In this document: positions 9,826 through 25,591 of the stretch, in pieces | Numbering within the stretch: position 1 is the first letter of the stretch | Layout: the number at the start of each line of letters is the position of its first letter | Source of the DNA: an uncultured delta proteobacterium | GTDB lineage: Bacteria > Desulfobacterota > Syntrophobacteria > Syntrophobacterales > Syntrophobacteraceae | Reading direction: 5' to 3' | DNA length: 64,000 nucleotides | Assembly: GCA_963698165.1 (NCBI GenBank) | Contig: CAVOPT010000023.1 | Location: forward strand, 25,704-89,703 | Made by a program: the position numbers and the translations under genes | Notes under the pieces: generated by a model | The model's input: the letters and a program-made list of their open reading frames with translations, nothing else | Told to the model about the DNA's origin: nothing | Database searches by the model: none

Positions 9826-10718
9826 GGCGCCGGCTGCTCGCGGACCCCAGCCGATTGCGGTGCCGGATCGAGGAAGTCCTGGGCAAGAAGTGCGGTTGCG
9901 AATCCCTTTACGAGAACGAACCCTGTGAGCGTGTCAGGTCGTCGTCGGTCATGCTGCTCCTGGGAGAGCACGCCGCCTCCAACGGCCACGCTCCGGAGAT
10001 TTGCTTCATTTTGAACAAAAGATCCATGAGCGTCCGGCAGGGTGGAGATCTCTGCTGCCCCGGCGGTACGGCCAATTCCAGGCTGGATCCCGCCATCGCG
10101 AGGCTCCTGACGCTTCCGGGCTCTCCCCTGACCCGTTGGGCCCACTGGCGGGAACTGCGGAAACGCAGCCCCGAGGAGGCGCGGCTCATTTCCCTGCTCC
10201 TCGCCACCGGGCTTAGGGAAAGCTGGGAGGAAATGAGGCTCTATCCATTCCTCGTGCGATTCCTCGGGCCCCTGCCTTCCCAGTGCCTCCTCCTCTTCCG
10301 CCGTGTCATCCATCCCATGGTCGCCTGGGTGTCCTGGCAGAGGCACTTCCTGCCAAGCTGGGAAGTGGAGAGAATCGTCACCATTCCGGTGCGTGAGCTC
10401 CTGGATTCGGATCGCTACGTGCGATACCGGCTGGATGTGCCTCCCCACATGGAGTGGCGCTTCAACGGAAAACCCGACGATTTCCCGTGTTTCCGATTCT
10501 TGCAGGGGGACCGGGTGGAGCTGCTCTGGGGGGTGACGTTCAGAATCGTGACCTTGATCCTGGAGTTGGTGTTCGAATTCACGGTTCCGCCCATGGCGTC
10601 GCTTCCGGTGGTCACGGGGGTCATCGACGAGAGCTACGTGCTGGGTCCCGCCACCGGCAATGGCCAGGAGGCCCGCAATGCCCGGAGGGAACAGGAAATC
10701 GAGAAATGCGTATCCTAG
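9786..10718 (+). CDS. Nudix-family hydrolase, CoA-pyrophosphatase-like
   Basis: ILNKRSMSVRQGGDLCCPGG ... GLRESWEEMRL resembles the NudL/CoA-pyrophosphatase signature plus a Nudix box interrupted by an insertion. It overlaps the hrpA end by 40 nt, so the start is uncertain. Confidence 0.55.
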   Translation: MARMGDRESKEALRRRLLADPSRLRCRIEEVLGKKCGCESLYENEPCERVRSSSVMLLLGEHAASNGHAPEICFILNKRSMSVRQGGDLCCPGGTANSRLDPAIARLLTLPGSPLTRWAHWRELRKRSPEEARLISLLLATGLRESWEEMRLYPFLVRFLGPLPSQCLLLFRRVIHPMVAWVSWQRHFLPSWEVERIVTIPVRELLDSDRYVRYRLDVPPHMEWRFNGKPDDFPCFRFLQGDRVELLWGVTFRIVTLILELVFEFTVPPMASLPVVTGVIDESYVLGPATGNGQEARNARREQEIEKCVS

Positions 10719-10761
10719 ACCGTTTCCTGACTCTGCAACCAGGTGAAAGGGGTTGGCTCAC

Positions 10762-11145
10762 ATGACTCGAGAAGGGGACGTGGTTCTGGTCTACGTGGAA
10801 GACAATCCTGCCTTCTTTGCGAGGGTGGAAGCCATTACCGCGGACGTGAAGACCGGCTGGTACCAGATGAAGATGCTGGTGCTCCAGGTTCCCCTTCTGG
10901 TCATCACGTGGATTCTTCGGGAGACTTACATCAACGGGGATGAATTCACCATGGGCGGAAAGCCGGTGAGGGTGGTCAAGGTGGTCACGCCGGCCGAGGA
11001 AACCGAGCTCTCCGACCTGGAAGAGACTCCGGAGAAAGAGCCGGAGGTCATTCACCCCGAGGAGAAAGCCCGCGGTGGGAAGAATGGGGAAGCAGGCAAG
11101 GTTGTCTCCCTGGCGGACCGCAGGAAGAAAGATCAGTCTCCCTGA
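10762..11145 (+). CDS. hypothetical protein
   Basis: ATG at 10762 (the ORF track starts at TTG 10753). MTREGDVVLVYVEDNPAFFARVEAITADVKTGWYQMKMLVL... has protein-like composition and an acidic/basic tail. No family recognised. Confidence 0.5.
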   Translation: MTREGDVVLVYVEDNPAFFARVEAITADVKTGWYQMKMLVLQVPLLVITWILRETYINGDEFTMGGKPVRVVKVVTPAEETELSDLEETPEKEPEVIHPEEKARGGKNGEAGKVVSLADRRKKDQSP

Positions 11146-11897
11146 CGGTGCCACCAATGGTCGTGGCCTTCGAACCACCAGTCGGTGAAGTCGGTGTTCA
11201 GGATTTCCTCCGCGATGCTCTTTCCCACCGCCGTTTTCAGGCGCTTCAGGGCATGGTGGATCCACTTTCCGGCGTAGGAGTTTCCGAGATCCCCCTGTTC
11301 CTTGAGCTCCAGGATAAGGTCCAGCTGGTCGGCATCGTGGGCCAGCTGCACCTCCAAAGCCTCGCCCTTCCGGTACTCCTCCATGAGCTCCCTGAATTCA
11401 TCGCCGAAAGGCAGGGTGCTCGCCAGATCCTCGATGGCCTCCCTTTCCCTGGCCTTGACGTATTGCTTGTTCACGTAGTTGAGGTCCCCGATGCGGGCTT
11501 CCGGGACGTCGTGAAAGAGGCACAGGCAAACGACCTTGAACGGGTCGGCACTCGGCGTGAGCTTTGCCAGGGTGTATCCTATCATCGTCACCCGGTACGA
11601 ATGGTCGGCAACGGATTCTTTCCCCGAGCCGAGGAACTGGTACCCGCTACGGGGGGTTTTTTTGAGCATGCCGAGTTCGAAGAAAAAGTTGACGACGTTC
11701 TTGTGATCGGGTTGAGGAGTCTCGGCGGCCCCGGCGGGGGAGTGCTTGGCATGCCTCTTCACGGCTTGGGATCTACCTTTCCTGGTCTGTTGGGGAGAGG
11801 GTTCTCTTCCGTCCTTTTCCCGGGTGGTCCCGGGACTCTTTCGCCACCCGGTGGATGAGGGACGTGGGGATTCTATCAAAGGTCCCCTGCTTGTCAA
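11133..11897 (-). CDS. HD-domain phosphohydrolase (YfbR-like 5'-nucleotidase family) with a basic N-terminal extension
   Basis: SVADHSYRVTMIGYTLA and LFHDVPEARIGDLNYV give the H...HD...D pattern of the HD superfamily. The N-terminal ~70 aa are K/R/P-rich. Confidence 0.7.
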   Translation of the reverse strand: MTSRGPLIESPRPSSTGWRKSPGTTREKDGREPSPQQTRKGRSQAVKRHAKHSPAGAAETPQPDHKNVVNFFFELGMLKKTPRSGYQFLGSGKESVADHSYRVTMIGYTLAKLTPSADPFKVVCLCLFHDVPEARIGDLNYVNKQYVKAREREAIEDLASTLPFGDEFRELMEEYRKGEALEVQLAHDADQLDLILELKEQGDLGNSYAGKWIHHALKRLKTAVGKSIAEEILNTDFTDWWFEGHDHWWHRQGD

Positions 11898-12076
11898 TCC
11901 ATCCGGCGAAGACCTCGCCCCTCGCTCCCGGGAATCCCATTGACACGCTATGTGAAACCGGATATGCGATAAATCAAGATCGCCTCTTGTTCCGTCGGGC
12001 TTCCCCCGGCCCAGGGGAACAAGCCTTCTTCCCTCATGCGGCGTCCTGGTGCGTGGTGTCCTCGCCTTGAAGGTTT

Positions 12077-15000
12077 GTGATCCGTGATGACCCGAGGGTC
12101 GGAGGCCTCATACAGATGCGTTCGGATGCCGGTCAGCGAATCGACGATTCGGACCCCCGCTTCAGGATCTTCTATGAGCTCATGCAGAGAAAGGTGCGGG
12201 ACATCCTCCTCGTCTCGACCCTGTATGACGCCTGCATCATGGAGGAAGACGGGCGCCTCGTCGAACGCATCATCAACGAATACCGAGGTCTGAACCTCAG
12301 CCAGCCGCCCCGCATCAACTGGGCATCCACCGCCGAAGAAGCCCTCCATCTCCTGGACACGAAGAATATCGACCTCGTCATCACCATGCTGCGCCTTGCG
12401 GACATGGACGCGTACGCCCTTGCCGAGCGAATCCGGGAGAAGGTGCCGGACCTTCCCATTCTGCTTCTCTCCCACACGGTTCCGGACCCTCAGTGCGCGT
12501 CCGAGACGGTCCACCGGTCCATCGACAGGACCTTCGTCTGGACGGGGAATGCCGATCTCCTGCTTGCCCTCATCAAGAGCACGGAAGACCGGTGGAACGT
12601 CGTGCCCGACACCCAGTCGGCGGGCGTCCGGGTCATCCTCTTCGTGGAAGATTCCCCCCTGTACCGGTCGACGCTGCTGCCGGTTCTCTACAAGGAGGTG
12701 GTTTCGCAGATCCAGGCCGTCATGGAGGAAGGGCTCAACGAGGAGCACAAGCTCCTCACCATGCGTGCCCGTCCCAAGATTCTGGTGGCTGAAACCTTCG
12801 AGGAGGCCACGGAGCTTTTCAGGCGTTTCGAGCCCAACGTCCTCGGCGTGATTTCCGACGTGAGATTTCCCTTTGAGTGCAGAATGGACGACAGCGCGGG
12901 AGTCCGGTTTCTCAAGGAAATCAAGCGGGAACGATTCGACATCCCCCTTCTCCTGACCAGTTCCGACCCGGCCAACTCGGGGAAGGCTGCGGAAATCCCC
13001 GCCGTGTTTCTCAATAAGAATTCCCCTACGCTCCACGACGACATCCGGGCCTTTCTCAAGTTTCAGCTGGGTTTCGGGAGCTTCATCTTTCGCATGCCTG
13101 ACGGCCGGGAGATCACCAGGGTTTCCAACATACGGTCGCTGGAGCGGGTGCTCCCTTCGATCCCGGCCGAATCCTTCCGCCATCACTGGACCCACAACGA
13201 TTTCTCGCGATGGCTCTTTGCCCGCACCGAAATCATCGTCGCCTCGAAACTGCGGCCCGTGACCGACGCGGATTTCAAGGGTGACGAGGAGGAGATGAAA
13301 CGGTTCCTCGTGACGGTCCTCCGCAAGCGTCGCCGGTGGCAGCAGCTGGCCGTCGTCGCAACCCTGGAAGCCGAGGATTTCGATCCGGAAATGGAGTTTT
13401 TCCGGGTGGGAAAGGGGTCCCTGGGAGGCAAGGGGCGCGGTCTCGTGTTCCTTTTCAATCTCTTGCGTTTGAAACGATCCCTCCACGAGAATTTCCCTCA
13501 GCTCGACATCGTGCTTCCCCAGACCCTCATCGTGACGACGGAGGGGTTCGAATCCTTCGTACAGCTTAACAACCTGAAGGACCGGGTGAAGGGAAACCTC
13601 TCCGATGAGGAGATCGGCGGCGTCTTTCTCGGGGCGGATTTCCCGGGATGGCTGGAGAAGAGGCTCGCCGCATACCTTTCGAAAGTGGAGTATCCTCTCG
13701 CCATCCGGTCCTCGAGCATTCTGGAGGACAGCCATTCGCGACCCTACGCCGGGCTTTACAAAACCTACATGCTCCCCAACAACCATCCGCGTTTCGACAA
13801 ACGCCTGGAACAGCTCGTCACCGCCATCAAGCTGGTTTATGCCTCCACCTATTACAGAGGGCCCAGGAGCTTTGCCGGCCGAACGCCTTACGGAGTGGAA
13901 GAGGACAAGATGGCCGTCGTGGTTCAGAGGCTTGTGGGGAGGCCTTACGGGGGGCACTTCTATCCTGCCGTTTCCGGAGTGGCCCAATCCTACAACTACT
14001 ATCCGTTTCCGCCCATGAAGCCTGAGGACGGCATCGCCCACATGGCCCTCGGCCTGGGGAGGACCGTGGTGGAAGGGGGCAGGACGGTCCGGTTTTCACC
14101 CAGGTACCCTCAGGTGCTTCCCGCCTTTTCCACGGTTGAAGGGATTCTCGACAGCGCCCAGGGGGAGTTCTACTCCCTCGACCTGCAACAGCCGGAGGTG
14201 GTCCTGGAGGTCCGAGAGGAATCCAACCTGGAGAAGCGGCACATCATGGAGGCAGCCAACGAGGAGCCGGTGATCCTGCTCTCCGACACCTACGTGCCGG
14301 AAGAGCACCGGATCAGGGAGGGGTCCGGGTCACCCGGCACCCGGGTTCTGACGTTTTCCCACATCCTCAAATACAACGCGCTGCCCCTCGCGGGGGTCCT
14401 CTCGGAACTCCTCCCCATGGGAAAGACGGGAATGGGCTGCCCCGTCGAGATAGAATTCTCCATAAACCTCTTCAATCCGGATGAAAATCGCCGCTCCGAG
14501 CTCGCATTGCTGCAGATACGCCCCATGGGCGGCCAGGAGCGGTTTGGCGAGGTCCAGATAAGCGACGACGAGATCGCCGCCGCTTTCTGTTATTCGTCCC
14601 ATGCCCTGGGAAACGGCGTTAAGGAACAGCTGGAGGACATCCTCTTCGTCATGCCGGACCTGTTCGATGTGGCCCGCACCAGGGAGATCGCCCGGGAGAT
14701 CGGGTCCCTCAACGCCAGGCTCCTGGAGGCGAAGCGCAAGTACCTCCTCATCGGTCCCGGCCGCTGGGGCAGCGCGGACCGGTGGCTTGGAATCCCCGTG
14801 GACTGGCATGACATCTCGGGCGTCGAGGCCATCGTGGAAGCGGCAACGAGGGAACTCAAGGCGGAACCTTCCCAGGGTTCCCACTTCTTCCACAACATCA
14901 CGTCCCTCGGCATCGATTACGTCATGGTGACACAAGACGGTTCGGATTTTCTCGACTGGGACTGGCTCCAGTCCCAACACAGAGTGGGCGGGACGCGCCA

Positions 15001-15094
15001 CGTGGCCCACGTTCGATTGGAAAGGCCTTTCGTCATCAAGGTGCAAGGCAGGCAGTCCCGCTGCGTGATGCTGAAGGGTCTTCAACTGCCTTGA
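12077..15094 (+). CDS. response-regulator-like protein fused to a PEP synthase/pyruvate phosphate dikinase N-terminal (PPDK_N, ATP-grasp) domain, copy 1
   Basis: 1005 aa. Two receiver-like regions (ILLVSTLYDACIMEEDG...DLVITMLRLADMDAY and VRVILFVEDSPLY...VLGVISDVRFP...IPLLLTSS). Then GKGSLGGKGRGL, LAIRSSSILEDS..PYAGLYKTY and MAVVVQRLVG, as in the nucleotide-binding domain of PpsA/PPDK. The conserved C-terminal motif is EPSQGSHFFHNITSLGI. GTG start at 12077, with an alternative ATG at 12116. Confidence 0.8.
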   Translation: MIRDDPRVGGLIQMRSDAGQRIDDSDPRFRIFYELMQRKVRDILLVSTLYDACIMEEDGRLVERIINEYRGLNLSQPPRINWASTAEEALHLLDTKNIDLVITMLRLADMDAYALAERIREKVPDLPILLLSHTVPDPQCASETVHRSIDRTFVWTGNADLLLALIKSTEDRWNVVPDTQSAGVRVILFVEDSPLYRSTLLPVLYKEVVSQIQAVMEEGLNEEHKLLTMRARPKILVAETFEEATELFRRFEPNVLGVISDVRFPFECRMDDSAGVRFLKEIKRERFDIPLLLTSSDPANSGKAAEIPAVFLNKNSPTLHDDIRAFLKFQLGFGSFIFRMPDGREITRVSNIRSLERVLPSIPAESFRHHWTHNDFSRWLFARTEIIVASKLRPVTDADFKGDEEEMKRFLVTVLRKRRRWQQLAVVATLEAEDFDPEMEFFRVGKGSLGGKGRGLVFLFNLLRLKRSLHENFPQLDIVLPQTLIVTTEGFESFVQLNNLKDRVKGNLSDEEIGGVFLGADFPGWLEKRLAAYLSKVEYPLAIRSSSILEDSHSRPYAGLYKTYMLPNNHPRFDKRLEQLVTAIKLVYASTYYRGPRSFAGRTPYGVEEDKMAVVVQRLVGRPYGGHFYPAVSGVAQSYNYYPFPPMKPEDGIAHMALGLGRTVVEGGRTVRFSPRYPQVLPAFSTVEGILDSAQGEFYSLDLQQPEVVLEVREESNLEKRHIMEAANEEPVILLSDTYVPEEHRIREGSGSPGTRVLTFSHILKYNALPLAGVLSELLPMGKTGMGCPVEIEFSINLFNPDENRRSELALLQIRPMGGQERFGEVQISDDEIAAAFCYSSHALGNGVKEQLEDILFVMPDLFDVARTREIAREIGSLNARLLEAKRKYLLIGPGRWGSADRWLGIPVDWHDISGVEAIVEAATRELKAEPSQGSHFFHNITSLGIDYVMVTQDGSDFLDWDWLQSQHRVGGTRHVAHVRLERPFVIKVQGRQSRCVMLKGLQLP

Positions 15095-15215
15095 CGGGCC
15101 TCGGCGGTCCAATGGGCGCCCTTTAGGGCATGCGCAGGGAAGGGGCTCTTCGCCACATGACAAGAGGAAGAGACACTTGGCGGATGAACGTGACGGGTTT
15201 TCAAGGAGGAGCGAC

Positions 15216-16565
15216 ATGTCGGACATCATGGAAATCGTGAAGAGCAGGAATCCCCACGAAAAAGAATTCCATCAGGCCGTGGGGGAGGTCGCGGATTCCG
15301 TCAAGCCGGTTCTCGACCGCAATCCCCAATACAGGCACCAGAAGATCCTGGAGCGGATGGTGGAGCCCGAGCGGGTCATCATGTTCCGCGTGGTGTGGAT
15401 GGACGACCGGGGAACCGTCCAGGTGAACCGTGGCTACCGTATTCAGATGAGCAGTGCCATTGGGCCCTACAAAGGCGGGCTGCGCTTTCACCCGTCGGTG
15501 AACCTCAGCATACTGAAGTTTCTCGCCTTCGAACAGGTGTTCAAGAATGCCCTCACCACCCTCCCCATGGGCGGGGGCAAGGGCGGGTCGGACTTCGACC
15601 CCAAGGGGAAATCCGACAACGAGGTCATGCGCTTCTGCCAGAGCTTCATGTGCGAACTGTACCGCCACGTGGGGGCGGACACGGACGTCCCGGCGGGGGA
15701 CATCGGAGTGGGGGCGCGGGAAGTCGGTTACCTCTTCGGAATGTACAAACGATTGTGCAATGAATTCACCGGGGTGTTCACCGGGAAGAGCCTGAACTGG
15801 GGAGGGAGCCTCATCCGTCGCGAAGCGACGGGCTATGGGTGTGTCTATTTCGCATCCGAGATGCTCGCGACCAGGAACCAAAGCCTGGAAGGGAAAGTGT
15901 GCCTCGTCTCCGGTTCCGGCAATGTGGCCCAATACACGGTGGAGAAGATCCTCGATCTCGGGGGCAAGGTGGTGACCCTCTCGGATTCCAATGGACACAT
16001 CCATGACGAGAGCGGTATCGACCGGGAGAAGCTGGCTTTCGTGAAGGAGTTGAAAAACGTCAGGAGAGGCCGCATCAAAGAGTACGCTGAAAAGTATCCC
16101 GCCTCGTTCTACACGCCGGCGGAACCCGCCGGGGATTCCAATCCCATCTGGGATCACAAGGCGGACTGTGCCTTCCCTTCAGCCACGGAAAACGAGATCA
16201 ACGGCAAGGATGCCCAAAACCTCGTGAAGAACGGGGTCCAACTGGTGGCCGAAGGGGCGAACATGCCGACCACGCCTGAAGGGGTCGACGTCTTCATGGA
16301 AAACCGCATTCTCTATGCTCCGGGAAAGGCATCCAACGCCGGCGGGGTTGCCGTCTCGGGCCTTGAGATGACTCAGAACAGCATGCGCTTGAGCTGGACC
16401 CGGGAGGAAGTGGACACCCGGTTGCGAACCATCATGAAAACGATTCACAGGACTTGCCTGGACGCATCCGCCCATTACGGCATCCGCGGAGATTACATGA
16501 AAGGGGCCAATATCGCCGGGTTCGTCAAGGTGGCGGAAGCATTGCTCGATCATGGGCTCGTATAA
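15216..16565 (+). CDS. gdhA: NADP-type glutamate dehydrogenase, copy 1
   Basis: GYRIQMSSAIGPYKGGLRFHP, LPMGGGKGGSDFDPKGKS and GSGNVAQY are hallmarks of the hexameric GdhA family. ATG at 15216 with AGGAGG 7 nt upstream. The ORF-track start at 15177 is less likely. Confidence 0.92.
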   Translation: MSDIMEIVKSRNPHEKEFHQAVGEVADSVKPVLDRNPQYRHQKILERMVEPERVIMFRVVWMDDRGTVQVNRGYRIQMSSAIGPYKGGLRFHPSVNLSILKFLAFEQVFKNALTTLPMGGGKGGSDFDPKGKSDNEVMRFCQSFMCELYRHVGADTDVPAGDIGVGAREVGYLFGMYKRLCNEFTGVFTGKSLNWGGSLIRREATGYGCVYFASEMLATRNQSLEGKVCLVSGSGNVAQYTVEKILDLGGKVVTLSDSNGHIHDESGIDREKLAFVKELKNVRRGRIKEYAEKYPASFYTPAEPAGDSNPIWDHKADCAFPSATENEINGKDAQNLVKNGVQLVAEGANMPTTPEGVDVFMENRILYAPGKASNAGGVAVSGLEMTQNSMRLSWTREEVDTRLRTIMKTIHRTCLDASAHYGIRGDYMKGANIAGFVKVAEALLDHGLV

Positions 16566-16627
16566 GGCGGAACGAAGGGGCCTTGAGTCGGTTTTTGAGA
16601 GCCGTGCCTGCGCGATTCATGACGGCA

Positions 16628-16697
16628 AACCACGAAGGGCACGAAGAATCACGAAGGAATTCATCTTCTTCGTGCCCTTCGCGTTCTTCGTGGTTCA
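16628..16697. repeat. large imperfect palindrome built from the cacgaagggcacgaag repeat family
   Basis: aaccacgaagggcacgaagaatcacgaaggaattcatcttcttcgtgcccttcgcgttcttcgtggtt. The left and right arms are reverse complements. It lies about 60 nt after the gdhA copy-1 stop and could act as a stem-loop or terminator. Confidence 0.65.
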
Positions 16698-16833
16698 GTG
16701 GTTCAAATGATATCCATCAGAATATTTCCGAGCAGTTGCACACGCCCACCCTGATCACCATTGGCGATGAAATCCATAACTTTTCCGAGTAAAATCAATT
16801 AAATTTCTTTTGACATCCCCTTAAAAAATCCCC

Positions 16834-16864
16834 TTGACAAGGAATCTGATGTCTGATATATCAG
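16834..16864 (+). promoter_or_regulatory. candidate sigma70-type promoter overlapping a perfect 12-bp palindrome, upstream of REC-PPDK_N copy 2
   Basis: TTGACA (16834-16839), 17-nt spacer, TATATC (16857-16862). The perfect palindrome ctgatatatcag (16853-16864) overlaps the -10. A second TTGACA lies at 16810-16815, with a direct repeat tcccctt/tcccctt. The stretch is unusually AT-rich for this window. Confidence 0.45.
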
Positions 16865-16918
16865 ATTTCAACTCTGCAAGGTTGCTCCATCCCGCAACGT
16901 TCGAGGGAGGATGTTGGC

Positions 16919-19900
16919 ATGACCGGTCACACGAGCATTACAGGTCCAACGTGCACGACGGCCAACCTCGCTCCTTCCGTCGATGAATTCGATCCCCGAT
17001 TTACAATCTTTCACGAGCTGATGCGAGAGAAGGTCCAGGAGATTCTCCTCGTTTCCACTCTCTACGACGCGTGCATCATGGAGGAAGATGGTCGGCTGGC
17101 CGAGAGGATCATCAATGAATACCGGGGCCTGAGCCTGAGTCAGCCCCCCCGCCTGAACTGGGCTTCTTCCGCCGAGGAAGCCCTCCGCTGCCTGCATCAC
17201 AAACGGTTCGACATGGTGATCACCATGCGGCGTTTGGCCGACATGGATGTCTACGCGTTCGGGGAAGAACTGAAGAAAAGGAATCCGCAGCTGCCGGTGA
17301 TCCTTTTCACCCACACGGCCCCCGACCCGAGGTGCACCCCCGTTCGGGTGAAGAGGCCCGGCATTGACAGGACTTTCATCTGGTCGGGCAATACCGACCT
17401 CATCATCGCGCTGGTCAAGAGCGTGGAAGATCAGATGAATGTCGGTCACGACATTGAGATGGCGGGGGTCCGGGTGATTCTCTTCGTGGAGGATTCTCCC
17501 ATCTACCTGTCCACGCTCCTGCCCGTGCTGTACCGGGAGGTCATGCAGCAAACCCAGGCGGTGATGGAACAGGGACTGAATGAAGAGCACAAGCTTCTCA
17601 CCATGCGTGCTCGCCCGAAGATCCTGGTGGCCGAGGATTTTGAACAGGCGACGCAGCTTTACGAATTGTACCTCCCCTATCTCCTGGGGGTGATTTCGGA
17701 CGTGCGATTCCCCAGAAACGGCGAACTGGACGATGACGCGGGGGTCAATTTCCTCTCCAGGGTGAAGCGGGAGCAGCCGGACATCCCCCTCCTGCTGACC
17801 AGCTCCGAGCCTGCCAACGCCGAACGGGCTCTCCAGATCCCGGCCATGTTCATCAACAAGAATTCTCCATCCCTCCACACTGAAGTGCGTTCGTTTCTCA
17901 CGGGCCACCTCGGCTTCGGAGACTTCATTTTTCGCCTTCCCGATGGCCGGGAGATTGCCCGTGTCTCCAACATGCACTCTTTCGAAAAGACTCTGCCCAC
18001 CATTCCCAGGGAGTCATTCTATTACCATTGGAGCCGCAATGATTTTTCGAGATGGCTCTTTGCCCGGTCGGAAATCATCCTTGCCTCCAAGCTGCGCCCT
18101 GCGACGGACAAGGACTTCTCGGGGGATGTGGAGAGCATGCGGCGGTTCATCATCTCTAATATTCATGAGCGTCGGATCCGTCGGCAAGAGGGGCTGGTGG
18201 CGAGCTTCGACTCCGGCGATTTCGACCTGGACACGGACTTCTTCAAAATCGGCAAGGGGTCACTTGGGGGAAAGGCCAGGGGGCTGGTCTTCATTTCCAA
18301 CATGCTTCGCCGTCACGCTGCTCTGCGGGAGAACTACCCGGGAGTCCGGGTCACCTTTCCCAGGACACTGATCATCACCACCGAGGGGTTTGACGCCCTG
18401 ATGGAGGAAAATGGTCTGGAAGACCTCTGGGAAACGACGCTGAACGATGGAGAAATCGCACGGCTTTTCATGGATGCCCGCTTTCCGGGTTGGATCGAGG
18501 AAAAGCTCGCGGTGTACCTGGGTCACGTACACCATCCCCTGGCGGTTCGTTCCTCGAGTCTTCTCGAAGACAACCAGAACCAGCCCTATGCCGGCCTCTA
18601 TCGAACGCTCATGCTGCCCAACAACCACCCCGACCCCGCAGTGCGGTTGGAGCAGCTCGTCACGACGGTCAAGCTCATTTATGCGTCCACCTTTTACCGG
18701 GCTCCGAGGGCCTTTGCCTTGAGAACGTCCCAAGGCGCGGAAAAGGAGAAGATGGCGATCATCATCCAGAGGCTCATCGGCAAGCGCCAGGGGGACTATT
18801 TCTATCCTGCCATTTCCGGTGTGGCCCAATCACAGAATTATTACCCTATTTCTCCCATGAAGACGGAGGACGGCGTCGCCCACATTGCCGTCGGCCTCGG
18901 AAAGACGGTCATGGCCGGAGAGAAGGCGCTCCGGTTTTGTCCCAGGTATCCGCATGTTCTGCCCCAATTCTCCTCCGTTGAAGACATCCTGCGAAACGCT
19001 CAGCGCACTTTCTACGCTCTGAAAATGACCCATGAAGAGTTTGCGCCCGATGCTCACGAAGAATGCACTTTGGAAAAGCGCGAGATAGAAGACGCTGAGG
19101 CGGAGGAGCCGGTGAGGATCCTGTCGAGCATCTACAGGCCGGAGGAACACTGCATTGTCGACGGATCCATGGGGGAAGGGCATCGGATCGTCACCTTTGC
19201 CCAGGTGCTGAAGTACAAGCTCCTCCCGCTCCCGGAGCTGCTGTCGGACATCCTCGAAACGGCCCGCGAGGGGATGGGCTGCCCGGTGGAGATTGAGTTC
19301 TCGGTGAACCTGGGTTCCCCGGAGGACGCCCGCTCCGAGCTGAGTCTCGTGCAAGTCAGACCCATGGCCAGCGAAGAGGCCATCGACGGGGTTGAAATCA
19401 GCAGCGGGGAGATCTCCGGAGCTTTCTGCTATTCCGCCCACGCTCTCGGAAACGGAAGGAAAAAAGGCATGACGGACATTCTCTATGTCAAGCCCGACGT
19501 CTTCGATCCGAGTCGTATGCCCCAGATAGCCCGAGAAATCGGGGAGATGAATTCCGTGATCTTTCAGCAGGGTCGCACCTACTTGCTGGTCGGCCCGGGG
19601 AGATGGGGCTCCGGCGACCGTTGGCTCGGGATACCCGTCGGCTGGGCGGACATCTCCGGAGTCGGGGCCATCGTCGAGACCACGGACCCACAGCTCAAGG
19701 CCGAACCCTCCCAGGGGTCTCATTTCTTCCACAACATCACGACCCTGGGGATCAGCTACATCGCGGTAAACGATAAGGAGGGCGATTTCCTTGACTGGAA
19801 CTGGCTGCGATCCCTTCCCCTGGCGGGTGAGACAACCCATGTGGCTCACGTGCACCTGAGTGACCCGTTTGTGGTGAAACTGGACGGGAAGAAGTCTCTT

Positions 19901-19957
19901 GGCGTCATTTTCATGGGGACTTCCAGCGAAGGAGCACTCTGTTTCGAATCGACCTGA
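16919..19957 (+). CDS. response-regulator-like protein fused to a PPDK_N (ATP-grasp) domain, copy 2
   Basis: 1012 aa, collinear with 12077..15094 along the whole length. Shared blocks include ILLVSTLYDACIMEEDGRL.ERIINEYRGL, GVRVILFVEDSP, NEEHKLLTMRARPKILVAE, GKGSLGGK.RGLVF, VRSSSLLED and EPSQGSHFFHNITTLGI. ATG with GGGAGGA upstream. Confidence 0.8.
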   Translation: MTGHTSITGPTCTTANLAPSVDEFDPRFTIFHELMREKVQEILLVSTLYDACIMEEDGRLAERIINEYRGLSLSQPPRLNWASSAEEALRCLHHKRFDMVITMRRLADMDVYAFGEELKKRNPQLPVILFTHTAPDPRCTPVRVKRPGIDRTFIWSGNTDLIIALVKSVEDQMNVGHDIEMAGVRVILFVEDSPIYLSTLLPVLYREVMQQTQAVMEQGLNEEHKLLTMRARPKILVAEDFEQATQLYELYLPYLLGVISDVRFPRNGELDDDAGVNFLSRVKREQPDIPLLLTSSEPANAERALQIPAMFINKNSPSLHTEVRSFLTGHLGFGDFIFRLPDGREIARVSNMHSFEKTLPTIPRESFYYHWSRNDFSRWLFARSEIILASKLRPATDKDFSGDVESMRRFIISNIHERRIRRQEGLVASFDSGDFDLDTDFFKIGKGSLGGKARGLVFISNMLRRHAALRENYPGVRVTFPRTLIITTEGFDALMEENGLEDLWETTLNDGEIARLFMDARFPGWIEEKLAVYLGHVHHPLAVRSSSLLEDNQNQPYAGLYRTLMLPNNHPDPAVRLEQLVTTVKLIYASTFYRAPRAFALRTSQGAEKEKMAIIIQRLIGKRQGDYFYPAISGVAQSQNYYPISPMKTEDGVAHIAVGLGKTVMAGEKALRFCPRYPHVLPQFSSVEDILRNAQRTFYALKMTHEEFAPDAHEECTLEKREIEDAEAEEPVRILSSIYRPEEHCIVDGSMGEGHRIVTFAQVLKYKLLPLPELLSDILETAREGMGCPVEIEFSVNLGSPEDARSELSLVQVRPMASEEAIDGVEISSGEISGAFCYSAHALGNGRKKGMTDILYVKPDVFDPSRMPQIAREIGEMNSVIFQQGRTYLLVGPGRWGSGDRWLGIPVGWADISGVGAIVETTDPQLKAEPSQGSHFFHNITTLGISYIAVNDKEGDFLDWNWLRSLPLAGETTHVAHVHLSDPFVVKLDGKKSLGVIFMGTSSEGALCFEST

Positions 19958-20025
19958 AGCGGTTTCAGCGAAACGGCGGAGAAGAGTCTGCTGTTGTTAT
20001 CGGACGCAATTCTGGAGGGCATGAA

Positions 20026-21357
20026 ATGATAGACGAGATCATGGGCATTGTGATGGCGAGGGACCCTTACGAGAAGGAATTCCATCAGGCGGTGAGAGAA
20101 GTTGTCGAGTCGATCCAGCCTGTAATGGAGGCCAATCCGCGATATCGGCAGGCGAAGATCCTGGAGAGGATCACGGAGCCGGAGCGGGTGATCATGTTCC
20201 GGGTGCCCTGGATGGATGATCAGGGCAATGTTCAGGTCAACCGGGGATACCGCATTCAGATGAGCAGCGCCATCGGGCCGTACAAGGGGGGGATTCGCTT
20301 TCACCCTTCGGTCACCTTGAGCACCCTCAAGTTTCTCGGTTTCGAGCAGACCTTCAAGAACGCTCTGACCACTCTGCCCATGGGCGGAGGCAAGGGCGGC
20401 TCCGACTTCAATCCCAAGGGCAAATCGGACAATGAGGTGATGCGTTTCTGCCACAGCTTCATGCTGGAGCTCTTCCGGCACATCGGCCCCGACACGGACG
20501 TTCCCGCGGGCGATTTGGGAGTGGGGAAGCGGGAGGTCGGATATCTCTTCGGAATGTACAAGAAGCTCCACAACGAATTCACCGGTGTATTCACCGGAAA
20601 GGGCCTCAGTTGGGGCGGAAGCCTCATTCGCCCCGAGGCGACCGGGTACGGCGTGGTCTACTTCCTGGAGGAAATGCTGGCGACCCGTGGTGACACCCTT
20701 GCGGGAAAGACCGTGGCCATCTCGGGGTACGGAAACGTGGGGACCTACGTGGTTGAAAAGGTGAACCAGCTCGGTGGAAAGGTGATCACCCTGGCCGACG
20801 AGTTTGGGTACGCCTTGGATCCTGATGGAATCAAGGGCGAGAAGCTGGAGTACATGGAGAAGCTCTGGACGGTGTACCGCAAATCGGCCAAGGAGTATGC
20901 CGACAAGTTCGGCTGCGAGTGGGTGCCCGATAAACGCCCCTGGGAAGTCAAATGCGACATTGCCATTCCCACTGCCATGGAGAACGAACTGAACGGGGAA
21001 AATGCCAGGACGCTCGTGCAGAACGGGTGCAAGGTGGTCGTTGAGGCCGCCAATATGCCGTGCACTCCGGAGGCTGTGCACGAGTTCCATGCCAGTGGCA
21101 TTCCTTTTGCCCCGGGAAAGGCGGCCAATGCAGGTGGAGTGGCCACCTCAGGGCTCGAAATGACCCAGAACAGCATGCGACTCAGCTGGACGAGCGAGGA
21201 AGTAGACGCTCGCCTGAGAATCATCATGAAAACGATTCATAACAGCTGTCTTGATGCGGCAGCGCAATACGGTTCCCCGGGCAACTATGTCAAGGGCGCC
21301 AACATTGCCGGGTTCACCAAGGTGGTTGATGCCATGATGGACCAGGGTCTGGTGTGA
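20026..21357 (+). CDS. gdhA: NADP-type glutamate dehydrogenase, copy 2
   Basis: 443 aa, with the same GdhA hallmarks (GYRIQMSSAIGPYKGGIRFHP, LPMGGGKGGSDFNPKGKS). Clearly a paralog of 15216..16565, diverged at both the protein and DNA level. Confidence 0.92.
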   Translation: MIDEIMGIVMARDPYEKEFHQAVREVVESIQPVMEANPRYRQAKILERITEPERVIMFRVPWMDDQGNVQVNRGYRIQMSSAIGPYKGGIRFHPSVTLSTLKFLGFEQTFKNALTTLPMGGGKGGSDFNPKGKSDNEVMRFCHSFMLELFRHIGPDTDVPAGDLGVGKREVGYLFGMYKKLHNEFTGVFTGKGLSWGGSLIRPEATGYGVVYFLEEMLATRGDTLAGKTVAISGYGNVGTYVVEKVNQLGGKVITLADEFGYALDPDGIKGEKLEYMEKLWTVYRKSAKEYADKFGCEWVPDKRPWEVKCDIAIPTAMENELNGENARTLVQNGCKVVVEAANMPCTPEAVHEFHASGIPFAPGKAANAGGVATSGLEMTQNSMRLSWTSEEVDARLRIIMKTIHNSCLDAAAQYGSPGNYVKGANIAGFTKVVDAMMDQGLV

Positions 21358-21535
21358 GCCCGCGATCCGAAGAGTTCTTTACGGATTTTCCCTCCCACGT
21401 GGAATGGAAAACCGCAAGGATAGTTCATTCAGGTGAATCGATGGAAGGAATCACCTGATTCTGGATGGATGAGAGAAGTTGTGTTTTCGACAAGCAATCG
21501 AAGTGGAAAGAGAAAGGAGATCAGTCGTGAGCAAA

Positions 21536-23257
21536 ATGAAGATGACCCCCAGTGAGGCATTGGTTGAAACCATGGCGGCGGAAGGCGTGAAGAATGTCTT
21601 CGGGATCGTGGGATCCGCATTCATGGATGCACTGGATATTTTCCCGTCGGCAGGCATCCGTTTCATCCCCGTGGCACACGAACAGGCAGCCTGCCACGCC
21701 GCTGACGGACTGGCCCGGGTGACGGGAAAGCCCCAGTGCTGCATCGCTCAAAACGGCCCCGGCGCTGCAAACTTTGTGTCGGCCATGGTGGCGGCATTCT
21801 GGGCCCACTCCCCTGTCGTCGCCCTCACGCCCGAAACCGGATCCAAGGGAATCGGGACCGGCGGATTTCAGGAACTGGACCAAATGGCCATGTTCCAGAA
21901 TCAGACCGTGTACCAGGTGAGGGTCAATCGCCCCGACCGCATGTCGGAGCTTGCCAGGCGCGCGTTCTACATGGCCAAGAACCTCAATGGCCCGACCCAG
22001 CTGAACATCCCTCGGGACTACTTCTACGGGGAGCTCGAGGATGAGATCTACACCACCATGACGGTCTCCCGGGGCATCGGGTCCAAGGAGTCCCTGGAGG
22101 AAGCCGCCAGGCTCCTGGCCAACGCGAAATACCCGGTCATCCTGTCCGGCGGCGGAGTGTCCCAGGCCAACGCGCTGGAAGAGGTCAAGGCTCTCGCCGA
22201 GTACCTGAGCGCGCCCGTTGTCAACAGCTACCTCCACAATGACACCTTTCCCCACAATCACCCTCTCGCCACGGGGCCCATCGGCTACTGCGGGTCCAAG
22301 GCGGCCATGCGCACCATCGCCAAGGCGGACGTCGTCGTTGCCTTAGGATCCCGCATGGGGCCGTTCGGGACCCTGCCCCAGTACGACATGGCCTACTGGC
22401 CCGAGAAGGCCAAGCTGATCCAGGTGGATGTGGATGTGACCGTTCTGGGTCTGAGCAAGAAGGTGGACGTGGCGTGCTGCGCCGATGTGAAGGAGTACAC
22501 GGCGGAGCTCCTCAAGGCCGTCAAGGCCTTGAAGCCCGCGCTTGCGCCCAATAAGAAGCGCCTCGCGGACGTGGAAAAGGAAAAGAAGGCCTGGGGCGAT
22601 GAGCTGGAAGGGTGGTCCACTTCCACCAACAAGCTCATGCATCCCCGCCGCTTCCTGCGGGAGCTTTCCCTCGCCATTCCGGAGGGAAGCATCATCTCCA
22701 CGGACATCGGGAACAACTCCTCCATGTGCAACGCATACTTCAGGTTCAGCGGAGTTCGCCAGCACATTTCCGCTCTTTCCTGGGGCAACTGCGGTTTTGC
22801 ATACGGTGCGGCCATGGGAGCCAAGATCGGCAAGCCGGACACCCCTGTCTTCGCCTTCCAGGGAGACGGCGCCTACGGGATCAGCGGCATCGCCGAAGTG
22901 ATGACGGCAGTGCGTGAAAACATCCCGGTCATCGCCATCGTGGCCAACAACCTGGAGTGGGGTGCGGAGAAGAAAAACCAGATCGACTATTACAACAACC
23001 GGTTCATCGGGGCCAATCTGCGGGAAAACCCCGACTATGCGAAGCTCGCTGACGTCATGGGAGCCAAGGGCTACAAGGTCGAGGACTATCGGGATGTGCA
23101 GGATGTCGTGCGAGACGCCGTGGCATCCGGGAAGCCTTGTGTCATCAACGCCATGATCGAGGGCGGTGAAAATGTACTCGCGGAACCGTTCCGCCGCGAT
23201 GCCCTCAAGAAAGCGTGGCGTTTGCTGCCGAAGTACAAGCATCTCAACGTGGAATAG
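21536..23257 (+). CDS. xsc: thiamine-diphosphate enzyme, best read as sulfoacetaldehyde acetyltransferase (Xsc)
   Basis: N-terminus MKMTPSEALVETMAAEGVKNVFGIVGSAFMDALDIFPSAGIRFIPVAHEQ..AQNGPG..NFV...TPETGSKGIGTGGFQELDQMAMF...NIPRDYF follows my memory of Xsc sequences (MKMT.EEA...FGI.GSA.M...D.FP.AGI.F...HE...GQGGFQE.DQM...N.PRDFW) better than acetolactate synthase. ThDP motif GDGAYG...NN. Start at ATG 21536, with GTG 21527 also possible. Confidence 0.7.
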   Translation: MKMTPSEALVETMAAEGVKNVFGIVGSAFMDALDIFPSAGIRFIPVAHEQAACHAADGLARVTGKPQCCIAQNGPGAANFVSAMVAAFWAHSPVVALTPETGSKGIGTGGFQELDQMAMFQNQTVYQVRVNRPDRMSELARRAFYMAKNLNGPTQLNIPRDYFYGELEDEIYTTMTVSRGIGSKESLEEAARLLANAKYPVILSGGGVSQANALEEVKALAEYLSAPVVNSYLHNDTFPHNHPLATGPIGYCGSKAAMRTIAKADVVVALGSRMGPFGTLPQYDMAYWPEKAKLIQVDVDVTVLGLSKKVDVACCADVKEYTAELLKAVKALKPALAPNKKRLADVEKEKKAWGDELEGWSTSTNKLMHPRRFLRELSLAIPEGSIISTDIGNNSSMCNAYFRFSGVRQHISALSWGNCGFAYGAAMGAKIGKPDTPVFAFQGDGAYGISGIAEVMTAVRENIPVIAIVANNLEWGAEKKNQIDYYNNRFIGANLRENPDYAKLADVMGAKGYKVEDYRDVQDVVRDAVASGKPCVINAMIEGGENVLAEPFRRDALKKAWRLLPKYKHLNVE

Positions 23258-23320
23258 TGCTAATCATCATCCGCATGCGAAGGTATCGTTTGAACGGCGC
23301 ATGCAGGATTGGAGGTTTCC

Positions 23321-24688
23321 ATGATCGATCTCAAGAACATTCCCTCATCCAAAGAGGCCCTCGATTCCTACGAGGTAGAAAACCTTTTCCATTCCTGGGG
23401 TTATCAGCCGTCACAGGCTCCCCTGCGGGTGGTCAGCGCCAAGGGTGTGCGGTTCAAGACCGAAGACGGAAGGGAACGCCTGGATTTCAGCTCCTGCTTC
23501 GTGAGCCACAGCATAGGCCATCAGGACCAGCGGGTCGTGGATGCGATTTGCGAGCAGGCAAAATCCCTGACTTCATTTGCCCCGAATTTTTCAACCAAGC
23601 CCAGGGCTCTTTTGGCAAAAATGCTCGCCGAGGTCACCCCTGGCGATCTTTCCCGCACCTTCATTTCCCTTGGAGGCACGGAAGCCAACGAAGCCGCGGT
23701 GAAAATCTGCCACCAGTATACCGGCAAGAGGAAGATGCTGACCCGCTACAGGAGCTACCACGGCGGCACGGCCACTTCCATGACCCTTTCCGCGGGAGAT
23801 GCCAGAAGCTGGGCGCAGGTCCTGGGGGGGACGGAGTGGGTCTCGGTTCCTCAACCCTATTGCTATCGGTGCATGTTCGGGCAGAACTACCCCGAATGTG
23901 GTCTGCAGTGCGTGAAATACGTGGACGAAGTGATCGAGCTCGAGGGGGGCGGCGAGAAGGTTGCCGGCATCATCTTTGAGCCCGTGACCGGGGCCAATGG
24001 GATCATCGTGCCGCCTCCGGAATACTTTCCACGCCTCAAGGAGGTTTGCGACAAGTGGGGCACGCTGATGGTTGCCGATGAGGTGATGACCGGGTTCGGG
24101 CGCACTGGAAAGTGGTTCGCCATGGATCACTGGGGGGTTGTGCCCGACATCATGACCCTGGCGAAGGGGGCAACCTGCGGATATCTGCCCCTGGGCATGA
24201 CGGTTGTCCGCAAGCACATCGCGGACCGCTTCAAGGAACAGTTCTTCTCACACGGGGCCACTTACGCAGGACACGCCCTGTGCTGCGCGGCGGCGGTGAG
24301 GGTGATCCAGATATACCAGGAAGACAATCTTATCGAGAACTCCGAGAAGATGGGCAAGTACCTCCTGGAGAAGGCGATGGAGCTCAAGGAAAAACATCCG
24401 TGCATCGGGGATGTGCGGGGCCTCGGATTGTTCGTGGGCTTGGAGCTGGTCAAGAACCGCAAGACACGGGAGCCCATCATCCCCGTGGGGGCGAAGATTC
24501 GCCCCGGTCTGAATCCCAAGCTCGAAGTTGCCAAGAAGATAGGCGAACTGGGAATGATCGCCATGGCGGCAAACCCGGGCAATGTCATTGCCATGGCGCC
24601 TCCTCTCATCATCAAGAAGGACGAGATCGACGAAGGCGTCGCCATCATGGACAAGGCTCTGGAAGTCGCTGACAAGTATGTAGAATAA
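23321..24688 (+). CDS. class-III (omega) pyridoxal-phosphate aminotransferase, candidate taurine:2-oxoacid aminotransferase
   Basis: About 455 aa. GGTEANEAAVKI, YHGGT, ADEVMTGFGRTGKWFA and TLAKG (PLP lysine) are class-III aminotransferase motifs. ATG 23321 with GGAGG 5 nt upstream. The substrate assignment is contextual only. Confidence 0.8.
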   Translation: MIDLKNIPSSKEALDSYEVENLFHSWGYQPSQAPLRVVSAKGVRFKTEDGRERLDFSSCFVSHSIGHQDQRVVDAICEQAKSLTSFAPNFSTKPRALLAKMLAEVTPGDLSRTFISLGGTEANEAAVKICHQYTGKRKMLTRYRSYHGGTATSMTLSAGDARSWAQVLGGTEWVSVPQPYCYRCMFGQNYPECGLQCVKYVDEVIELEGGGEKVAGIIFEPVTGANGIIVPPPEYFPRLKEVCDKWGTLMVADEVMTGFGRTGKWFAMDHWGVVPDIMTLAKGATCGYLPLGMTVVRKHIADRFKEQFFSHGATYAGHALCCAAAVRVIQIYQEDNLIENSEKMGKYLLEKAMELKEKHPCIGDVRGLGLFVGLELVKNRKTREPIIPVGAKIRPGLNPKLEVAKKIGELGMIAMAANPGNVIAMAPPLIIKKDEIDEGVAIMDKALEVADKYVE

Positions 24689-24770
24689 GCATAGATCGCC
24701 AAAGATGCCCGCGGGCATGCAGTGTCCGAGATCCGTTCCCTGGACGCTGAGCGACAAGGCAGGGCCACCT

Positions 24771-24992
24771 TCCCTCGCCCCTTCCCTTTGGAGAGGGGGC
24801 CAGGGGAGGAAGGACTGGCAAACCACACGTGGGCGGCTTAGGGGTATACGGTTCACTTAAGAGGGTCTCATATTCAGTTCCCCTCCCTTTGGCGGGAGGG
24901 GTCAGGGGAGGGGGTTCATCTCCTTCGTCTTTCACCCTCCCCCAACCCCTCCCATCGAGGGAGGGGAGTTCTAATCACGTTAAGTGAACAGC
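24771..24992. repeat. cluster of three GC-rich palindromic units (ccctccc-ttt-gg.gggaggg type) partly bracketed by a 10-bp inverted repeat
   Basis: Units lie at about 24771-24812 (ccttccctttggagagggggccagggga), 24879-24916 (cccctccctttggcgggaggggtcaggggaggggg) and 24936-24968 (cccctcccatcgagggaggggag). gttcacttaa (24852-24861) and ttaagtgaac (24980-24989) are inverted repeats. The cluster sits just after the aminotransferase stop. Confidence 0.6.
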
Positions 24993-25076
24993 ATTGGGTT
25001 TAGGACCTGAATCAGACAAAACCTGCACAGCCCGCGTTAACGGAAAAGATCCACCGAGGTTAAGGAAAATACGACA

Positions 25077-25550: not shown

Positions 25551-25591
25551 GGCCCTATCAAATGGTGACAGGCATGGAGATGGAGGAACAG

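Follow-up and report, generated by a model that had tools for sequence, protein, structure and literature searches.

Glutamate dehydrogenase (GDH) connects carbon metabolism with that of nitrogen, and its post-translational switching in bacteria is, to our knowledge, poorly understood outside a few lineages. The locus described here raises the question of why a gene for this enzyme should be paired, twice in succession, with a gene for a large protein that combines receiver domains with an ATP-grasp domain. It lies within a stretch of 64,000 nucleotides (nt), hereafter the window, of an uncultured delta proteobacterium of the Syntrophobacteraceae (assembly GCA_963698165.1, contig CAVOPT010000023.1, positions 25,704 to 89,703 of the forward strand). 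The window holds two collinear units on the same strand, module 1 (12077-16565) and module 2 (16919-21357), each encoding a protein of about 1000 amino acids (aa) with receiver (REC) and PPDK_N domains, which we label RP1 and RP2, followed by a GdhA-type dehydrogenase of the hexameric kind, GDH1 and GDH2 (Table 1). A first-pass annotation, made from the sequence letters and a list of open reading frames (ORFs), had placed the four ORFs exactly so, and Pfam and the NCBIfam model PRK09414 agree with its description of their products. It had also read the retention of the pairing in both copies as a sign of functional coupling, and had made this idea depend on whether homologs of the large protein in other genomes neighbor gdhA. 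They do so in about half of the cases, the adjacency recurs in relatives of both modules, and the partners co-segregate; hence, we regard functional coupling of RP and GDH as very probable.

The linkage was followed in two sets of RP relatives. For the genome set, one representative genome per species was scanned with the family alignment as query, which gave 573 relatives, of which the best 80 loci were kept; for the metagenome set, the query put to the contigs came from a remote subfamily, 37-44% identical to RP1, and 80 loci were clustered. Adjacency was counted for full-length RP genes with at least 1.5 kb on both sides, at a threshold of 800 nt. A GdhA-type gene is found within this distance of 27 of 56 full-length RPs in the genome set (47-59% identity to RP1), downstream on the same strand in 19 cases, upstream on the same strand in four, divergent in three and convergent in one, and a GDH gene lies equally close to 23 of 45 RPs in the metagenome set, where gdhA is mostly upstream. 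By our own estimate, which is not a computed control, chance adjacency would amount to roughly 0.1% for a one- or two-copy gene in a genome of ~4000 genes. When the ORFs of the loci were clustered all against all, GDH formed the largest group of neighbors (36/80 and 40/80 loci), the next-best groups reaching 12 and 7. The loci of the genome set belong to Desulfobacterales, Syntrophobacteraceae, Desulfocapsa, Maridesulfovibrio, Desulfomonilaceae and Chloroflexota, and the partner enzymes are of three kinds: the majority bear an NADPH-type signature, five loci carry the exact clostridial NAD-type signature GFGNVA/SGPDG, and a third kind belongs to a different GDH class of 415-438 aa. Moreover, arrays of two RPs with one to three GDH-family genes occur in six metagenomic loci (L095, L101, L108, L110, L113 and L132), arranged as RP-gdhA-RP or gdhA-RP...gdhA-RP; in L101, one NAD-type and one NADP-type GDH are each followed by their own RP, an arrangement that mirrors the window.

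RP and GDH genes remain neighbors in different phyla and at protein identities of 37-59%; the partners take four orientations, and the GDHs are of three kinds. From this we conclude that the linkage is selected, and that RP-GDH pairing as a conserved functional unit in Desulfobacterota, Chloroflexota and unassigned metagenomic lineages is well supported. The same persistence, together with purifying selection on all four genes of the window, speaks against neutral hitch-hiking of unrelated genes with the tandem as a chance juxtaposition, to which we give hardly any credence, even though half of the relatives lack an adjacent GDH and modules 1 and 2 each occur singly in other genomes.

The two modules are real, old paralogous pairs. 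RP1 and RP2 are collinear, with 595 of 981 positions identical (61%, two gaps), as are GDH1 and GDH2 (302 of 449, 67%; both BLASTP); the first-pass annotation had estimated two-thirds to four-fifths by eye, which is slightly high for the large proteins. On codon alignments the copies share 65% (RP pair) and 68% (GDH pair) of their nucleotides, third codon positions are ~46% identical, and the synonymous divergence (dS) between copies is 1.6 and 2.0, that is, synonymous sites are saturated. Thus, the copies are old and are not a repeat made by the assembly. An assembly artefact is ruled out by this divergence together with an independent contig from a separate assembly (L087, GCA_964623165.1), which holds a minus-strand HD-domain gene, orthologs of RP1 (88% identity) and gdhA1 (92%), and the first 179 residues of an RP2 ortholog (86%), with the junction between modules 1 and 2 as in the window. 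Separate orthologs for each copy (see below) likewise bear out the annotation's view that the second copy is no assembly repeat. All four genes are under purifying selection, the ratio of nonsynonymous to synonymous divergence (dN/dS) against orthologs being 0.09-0.12 for the RPs (0.09 for RP1 against its L087 ortholog, 0.12 for RP2) and 0.05-0.06 for the GDHs. The RP1-gdhA1 gap measures 118 nt (82 nt if a TTG start is taken) and the RP2-gdhA2 gap 68 nt, and 353 nt separate the modules; homolog N-termini are among the grounds for the likely starts of RP1 and gdhA1 listed in Table 1.

Each RP is nearer to proteins of other organisms than to its neighboring paralog: the nearest relatives of RP1 are P0001 (88% identity) and P0002 and P0003 (70%), those of RP2 are P0013 (84%), P0026 (83%) and P0006 and P0011 (76%), and an exact-sequence look-up of RP2 gave no record in the public assemblies, its closest match, a fragment of 606 aa from a metagenome-assembled genome of the Syntrophobacteraceae, being 99% identical. 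Module 1 stands alone in L084-L086, as the minus-strand HD gene, RP1 and gdhA followed by unrelated genes, and L081 and L082 show RP2 and gdhA followed by genes for a thiamine pyrophosphate (TPP) enzyme, an aminotransferase and an ABC transporter, with unrelated genes before them; L082 holds module 2 only. Across these loci, orthologs of GDH1 (92% identity in L087, 80% in L084) travel with orthologs of RP1 (70-88%), and orthologs of GDH2 (93% in L082, 89% in L081) with orthologs of RP2 (77-84%), so that RP and GDH partners are inherited together. Given that the modules are found singly elsewhere, their adjacency in the window reflects either an old tandem duplication followed by loss or a juxtaposition of old paralogs. 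The first-pass annotation had proposed duplication of the pair as a unit; the collinearity and a neighbor-joining tree in which the RP1 and RP2 clades are sisters agree with this, but the single modules of other genomes would call for later loss, and two further observations weigh against strictly joint inheritance. In the neighbor-joining tree of the dehydrogenases, the GDH2 clade sits on a long branch and is not sister to the GDH1 clade. In addition, GDH2 and the L082 enzyme are 93% identical (dS 0.56), but RP2 and the L082 RP only 74-77% (dS 1.37), a discordance that suggests recombination or gene replacement inside the module. Hence, some exchange of partners has occurred. The simplest history is an old in-lineage duplication of the pair with later loss in some genomes, GDH2 evolving faster or partly independently; alternatively, two old paralogous modules may have been brought side by side.

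The enzymes of the two modules differ in their cofactor signatures. Both score well above the PRK09414 (NADP-GDH) cut-off of 536 bits (GDH1 755, GDH2 729), GDH1 is 59% identical to Escherichia coli GdhA, and in an alignment of seven sequences (E. coli GdhA and six from this study) just over half of the 455 columns are invariant, including the GGGKGG motif. GDH1 carries GSGNVA ... SDSNG, which is the NADPH-type signature, as in E. coli GdhA, whereas GDH2 is without that signature and reads GYGNVG ... ADEFG (residues ~229-234 and ~252-256); the contrast holds for the orthologs of GDH2, with GYGNVG and ADE[FY]G against the GSGNVA and SDS[SN]G of E. coli GdhA and GDH1. Enzymes of the NADPH type have Ser at the positions that match clostridial F238 and P262, and at P6 of the fingerprint they have Ala (PMC3157743). 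GDH2 and its orthologs carry Tyr, Glu and Gly where GDH1 has Ser, Ser and Ala. From these residues GDH2 is probably NAD(H)-preferring, and the pattern suggests a switch away from NADPH preference, though NCBIfam labels both enzymes 'NADP-specific'.

The large proteins have an identical five-part architecture (Table 1), which we analyzed on an alignment of 98 family members (32-88% identity); conservation was counted on this alignment, and residue numbers follow the 1005-aa RP1 ORF (Trp379, for example, is W366 when counted from the ATG at 12116). At 50% identity (E<1e-30) the family falls into 1118 clusters, the majority full-length. Its description as 'REC-REC' in the first-pass annotation stands insofar as there are two receiver folds; the first, however, is a pseudo-receiver and only the second a true one. 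Receiver 1 has Met104 (12386-12388) at the phospho-acceptor position, where an alignment of hidden Markov models to the response regulator 4q7e sets 'VITML' over 'VVLDL'; this column holds Met in 59 members and Thr in 13, with Phe, Ser, Val and Leu also present and Asp in 0 of 98, and the AlphaFold2 (AF2) model retains the (beta-alpha)5 fold. In receiver 2 we find Glu191/Asp192, Asp261 (12857-12859), Ser295 and Lys314, conserved in 95, 85, 90, 93 (Ser or Thr) and 93 of 98 members, respectively; in the AF2 secondary structure, D261 ends beta3 (strand 255-261), S295 ends beta4 and K314 follows beta5. By its residues, receiver 2 looks competent for phosphorylation. The linker that follows is strongly conserved, with the motif 'LGFGDFVFR...W379' and a Trp379 invariant in all 98 members, and gives a weak DUF5752 signal in Pfam (E 0.017 in RP1; 25.5 bits against a cut-off of 23 in member P0187).

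The ATP-grasp domain matches PPDK_N (PF01326) with an E-value of 8e-33 in RP1 (114-116 bits against a cut-off of 27) and aligns with E. coli PpsA in hhalign at a probability of 97%. Its conserved positions are K452, R544 and Q813 (98/98 each), E793 (97), R815 (94) and E791 (92). The full-length AF2 model was of moderate quality (pLDDT 68.6) and its Foldseek matches were mostly receivers, so the C-terminal half was modeled again with the 98 sequences; the new model (pLDDT 94, pTM 0.93) has rifampin phosphotransferase (5hv1, E 1e-13) and pyruvate phosphate dikinase (PPDK; 1kbl, E 8e-10) as its sole significant fold matches. Both the residues and the predicted fold make this domain look competent. 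The term 'PEP-synthase-like' of the first-pass annotation (PEP, phosphoenolpyruvate) therefore holds for the ATP-grasp part and not for the rest, in which neither the PF00391 swivel nor the PEP-binding barrel was detected by sequence. The last ~180 residues form a family-specific domain with the motifs 'GPGRWGS899xDxWLGIPV' and 'PSQGSH936FF'. His936 is kept in 97 of 98 members and is placed by AF2 where a helix begins, past a Gly/Ser loop, while position 899 is Ser in 62 and Thr in 35; the counterparts of these key residues in RP2 are Met103, Asp261, Ser898 and His935. Conservation and model together make His936 the best candidate for a catalytic or phospho-carrier residue. The three longer members P0187, P0218 and P0193 have N-terminal extensions with no Pfam domain, kinase or GDH fusion.

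The annotation had added that a well-characterized enzyme family of unrelated role would speak against its idea. The best NCBIfam scores of the RPs lie far below the cut-offs (PigC 43 bits against 1300, PEP synthase 35 against 740; overall 25-43 against 600-1300), no NCBIfam model names the family, and full-text literature searches found no functional study of either the RP family or DUF5752, the architecture being merely listed in censuses. Already known are thus the REC+PPDK architecture, which appears in response-regulator censuses (PMC5847659, PMC4395418), and response regulators with enzymatic outputs; as far as full-text searches show, it has not been described that linkage to GDH is conserved and isoenzyme-specific, that a pseudo-receiver is set before a receiver, or that the C-terminal domain is peculiar to the family.

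We tentatively favor a specific mechanism, which we hold to be quite possible rather than probable: the RPs would be receiver-gated, ATP-dependent modifiers of their cognate GDH. A kinase encoded elsewhere would phosphorylate Asp261 of receiver 2 and thereby gate the ATP-grasp module; the latter would consume ATP, probably via a phospho-enzyme intermediate on the C-terminal domain with His936 as the best candidate, and would control its cognate GDH post-translationally, either by modifying it covalently or by binding it in an ATP-dependent manner, such that ammonium assimilation or glutamate catabolism would be switched on or off. The modules would be subfunctionalized, module 1 controlling the NADPH-type, assimilatory enzyme and module 2 the enzyme with the NAD-like signature, which would recycle 2-oxoglutarate for the adjacent aminosulfonate (xsc/aminotransferase) pathway; regeneration of 2-oxoglutarate by GDH2 for the aminosulfonate aminotransferase would fit the cluster downstream of gdhA2. 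The fully specified form is possible but in our estimate doubtful: the RPs would then be a response-regulator output class not recognized before, in which the receiver gates a PPDK-type ATP-grasp phosphotransferase and each GDH isoenzyme is covalently modified by the one RP dedicated to it.

Several observations weigh against this mechanism. About half of the relatives have no GDH inside the flanks examined, so the target of an RP need not adjoin it, or need not always be GDH. The RP-linked dehydrogenases are ordinary GdhA proteins, which share 58-60% identity with that of E. coli and show no insertion obviously specific to an RP partner, and full-text searches found no literature tying the RP family to GDH. 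In scans for promoter, terminator and sigma-54 consensus sequences (11800-21600, and the whole window), the counts did not exceed those expected from shuffling and give no evidence on co-transcription. The phospho-His swivel (PF00391) that defines dikinases was not detected by Pfam, by sequence search of the PDB or by hhalign: the C-terminal domain has no Pfam match even at E<=10, its PDB matches at E<=10 are non-significant and to unrelated proteins (E >= 0.22), and its hhalign probability against the swivels of E. coli PpsA and PtsI is below 1%, the non-significant best path setting Ser/Thr899, and no His, opposite the phospho-His of PpsA. Since the model aligns in Foldseek with five PPDK structures over 664-699 columns, more than the ~390-residue ATP-grasp part, the C-terminal domain may still be a diverged swivel. 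Resemblances noted by eye ('PSQGSHFF' to 'GGxTSHAA', and 'GPGRWGSxDxWLGIPV' to 'GGRTCHAAIIARELGIPAV') were not borne out by the profile searches and are kept as leads only. A regular-expression search of the loci of relatives for true PEP-utilizers proteins, meant to supply a profile for comparison, came back empty.

Failure to demonstrate a swivel would suit a non-covalent adaptor or sensor, in which the ATP-grasp domain senses adenylate or PEP and the RP controls GDH or gdhA expression by binding, in the manner of RssB-type or PII-type proteins. A tandem of pseudo-receiver and receiver resembles PleD-type dimerization switches, and the conserved palindrome upstream of RP2 (Table 1) suggests separate transcriptional control. 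However, the ATP-grasp residues K452, R544, E791/E793, Q813 and R815 are kept as in an active enzyme, and Pfam finds no DNA-binding domain in the RPs, so that we consider an adaptor distinctly unlikely.

Another alternative is that the RP is a receiver-gated enzyme that uses ATP to phosphorylate, in the manner of a dikinase, some metabolite of the glutamate/2-oxoglutarate node, with GDH as a pathway neighbor and not the target. All characterized PPDK_N enzymes that surfaced in our analysis do have small molecules as substrates, namely pyruvate, rifampin and prodigiosin precursors, and the genes around the RPs serve the metabolism of glutamate, glutamine and NADPH. Nevertheless, Pfam recognizes no substrate-binding domain in the RPs, neither a PEP-utilizers_C TIM barrel nor an insert resembling the rifampin-binding domain, the protein ending ~180 residues past the ATP-grasp domain. 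Moreover, a dedicated RP for each GDH isoenzyme, be it NAD-type, NADP-type or of the 415-438-aa class, is more easily explained by a protein partner than by a metabolite common to all, and we regard the small-molecule enzyme as unlikely.

As to the signal that would reach the preferred receiver-gated modifier, Pfam detected no histidine kinase in a scan of 50 long ORFs that together span the window, in agreement with the 'orphan' status given to both regulators in the first-pass annotation. In related arrays kinase genes do occur: in L095, L101, L110 and L113 (e.g., L113 1690-3798) a PAS-HisKA_3-HATPase_c kinase and a REC-GerE (LuxR-type) regulator are encoded between RP and gdhA, and a similar HisKA_3 kinase lies 4 kb from the RP1 ortholog in L084-L086 (L084 8616-10973). 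Because such kinases recur in the arrays and near an RP1 ortholog, conventional kinase input to Asp261 is plausible. Their recurrence also counts against the idea of a self-contained phosphorelay, in which phosphate would pass from the ATP-grasp domain via His936 to the protein's own Asp261 in place of a histidine kinase, the phosphorylated RP then acting on GDH. In the phosphotransferase system, swivel domains with a phospho-His pass their phosphate on to proteins, a near-invariant His and a receiver Asp stand within one polypeptide, and most related loci, like the scanned ORFs of the window, show no adjacent kinase; yet there is no structural support for His936 reaching Asp261, and short forms without receivers retain the ATP-grasp and C-terminal domains, which implies that this unit works without a receiver. 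We therefore judge the self-relay very improbable.

These REC-less forms (581-596 aa) comprise the ATP-grasp and C-terminal domains and occur at L162 10894-14162, L169 5143-8239 and L135 10784-12535. In L162 and L169 the short RP comes directly after a 429-aa GDH-family gene of another class (~31% identity to GdhA), and a conserved ORF that no Pfam model matches comes after it, while in L135 it adjoins, instead of that gene, a fusion of PPDK_N with a nucleotidyltransferase domain. Fusions of PPDK_N with a Pol-beta-type NTP_transf_2 domain (933-1066 aa; L135 7587-10787, minus strand; L094 8964-11765, plus strand) adjoin RP and GDH genes and are a second PPDK_N architecture in GDH neighborhoods. 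As both the short forms and the fusions adjoin GDH genes, the ATP-grasp/C-terminal unit appears, from its gene context, to be the effector and the receivers to be regulatory.

With the dikinases and rifampin phosphotransferase (PPDK, PpsA, RPH), the RPs share the PPDK_N ATP-grasp domain with all conserved nucleotide-binding motifs, and the conserved His of their separate C-terminal domain could act as a phospho-carrier; unlike these enzymes, they have no detectable PF00391 swivel or PEP-utilizers_C barrel, and they place two receivers and a DUF5752-like domain before the ATP-grasp. By fold, their ~300 N-terminal residues match the tandem receivers of PleD (REC-REC'-GGDEF), which are among the top Foldseek matches, and as in PleD one competent receiver is combined with one pseudo-receiver and an output that is enzymatic (in the RPs by prediction) and not DNA-binding. 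The RPs differ from PleD in having the pseudo-receiver first, an ATP-grasp output and, as genomic partner, a metabolic enzyme instead of a kinase.

Control of enzymes of this metabolic junction by covalent or phosphorylation-dependent means has precedents. GlnE and GlnD provide covalent nucleotidylylation control of glutamine synthetase, a nitrogen-assimilation enzyme, and an RP that used ATP to regulate GDH would, by analogy, play the role that GlnE plays for glutamine synthetase. The PPDK_N fusions beside GDH and RP in L094 and L135 likewise carry a nucleotidyltransferase domain. The RPs have, however, no sequence or fold kinship with GlnE, and a link to PII or uridylyltransferase was not found. 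In actinobacteria, GarA/OdhI and PknG control GDH and 2-oxoglutarate dehydrogenase, which sets a precedent for phosphorylation-dependent, post-translational control of a bacterial GDH by a signaling protein; in contrast to the RPs, this system consists of an FHA-domain protein and a Ser/Thr kinase of unrelated sequence in another phylum, not encoded beside gdh. If our proposal is true, the RPs would do for GDH what GlnE-type control does for glutamine synthetase, and such control would be common among anaerobic Desulfobacterota, Chloroflexota and related lineages. Their orientation-independent linkage to several GDH types makes them a concrete candidate for a dedicated GDH controller and opens a first way to the function of the REC-PPDK_N architecture. 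In the window, nature has set up an experiment of its own: of two paralogous pairs, the first has an NADPH-type enzyme and the second an NAD-like one, so that cognate and non-cognate combinations can be compared.

Other genes recur around the RPs as well: those for a Glu_synthase-domain protein, GlnA, class-II amidotransferases (GATase), aminotransferases, NtrC-type regulators, NAD synthase and NfnAB/GltD-like pairs, the common theme being ammonium/glutamate metabolism and NADPH supply. A 527-aa protein that has the flavin mononucleotide (FMN) Glu_synthase domain (PF01645) alone is encoded directly upstream of the RP in 12 Desulfobacterales loci (L028, L031, L034-L037, L042, L044, L045, L061, L064 and L074), and in L028, L034, L035 and L037 a PurF-like class-II amidotransferase gene follows gdhA; together the two may form a split glutamate-synthase-like system flanking RP-gdhA. 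In the distant subfamily, an NfnAB-like pair comes directly after the RP in L112, L124, L139, L148 and L161 (L148 9147-10040; L139 11500-12981), which links the module to NADPH supply. It comprises a sulfide/dihydroorotate-dehydrogenase-like FAD/NAD protein and a GltD-like 'NADPH-dependent glutamate synthase' (TIGR01316); the L112 contig holds the first gene of the pair alone. In the Desulfocapsa-like loci L067, L069, L077, L078 and L079, gdhA is followed by a gene for an arginyl/leucyl-tRNA-protein transferase (ATE_N/ATE_C), an N-end-rule enzyme, which hints at regulated proteolysis in the same neighborhood.

Table 1. Features of the two RP-gdhA modules and of the adjoining DNA, in window positions.
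Feature	Position	Strand	Details
HD_3/YfbR-like phosphohydrolase	11133-11897	-	Pfam HD_3 3.7e-31; divergent upstream neighbor of module 1
RP1 ORF	12077-15094	+	1005 aa; probable start ATG 12116, giving 992 aa; Response_reg + PPDK_N (Pfam)
RP1 receiver 1, aspartate-less pseudo-receiver	12188-12622	+	aa ~38-182
RP1 receiver 2, canonical	12629-13066	+	aa ~185-330
RP1 linker domain, weakly DUF5752-like	13073-13411	+	aa ~333-445
RP1 PPDK_N-type ATP-grasp domain	13418-14542	+	aa 448-822
RP1 family-specific C-terminal domain	14549-15085	+	aa ~825-1003; ~180 residues
gdhA1 ORF	15177-16565	+	likely start ATG 15213; ELFV_dehydrog_N + ELFV_dehydrog (Pfam)
Perfect 16-bp inverted repeat, 17-nt loop (CGAAGGGCACGAAGAA / TTCTTCGTGCCCTTCG)	16633-16681		68 nt past gdhA1 stop; arms 100% complementary
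Perfect palindrome CTGATATATCAG	16853-16864		55-66 nt upstream of RP2 start
RP2 ORF	16919-19957	+	1012 aa; Response_reg + PPDK_N (Pfam); same five-part architecture as RP1
gdhA2 ORF	20026-21357	+	443 aa; ELFV_dehydrog_N + ELFV_dehydrog (Pfam)
xsc, sulfoacetaldehyde acetyltransferase	21479-23257	+	TIGR03457 756 bits against cut-off 676
Class-III aminotransferase	23309-24688	+	Aminotran_3 7e-92

On the upstream side of the modules, the minus-strand HD gene precedes the RP1 orthologs in L084, L086 and L087 as it does RP1, and two ORFs with no Pfam match (9786-10718, plus strand, 310 aa; 10621-11265, minus strand, 214 aa) lie between hrpA and this gene. Downstream of gdhA2 stretches an aminosulfonate-type catabolic cluster (21479-34178), the first part of which is syntenic in L081 and L082; it contains xsc, the class-III aminotransferase gene, an ABC transporter with an SsuA/taurine-like binding protein, a GntR/FCD regulator, Amidohydro_3 and acetate kinase.

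Two elements mark the DNA between the modules. The palindrome CTGATATATCAG upstream of RP2 is unique in the window, with 0.03 occurrences expected by chance, and recurs in the two loci whose RP2 orthologs are closest, at L081 460-471 (58-69 nt before the start of the RP2 ortholog) and at L087 5814-5825 (55-66 nt before), with no exact match in L082; it is a candidate operator for a dimeric regulator. The inverted repeat past gdhA1 was not called a terminator in the consensus scan and has no T-run; it is likely a transcript-end hairpin dividing the modules, or else it may be a small repeated element, near-copies of its arm being found at 4392-4406 and 4729-4743.

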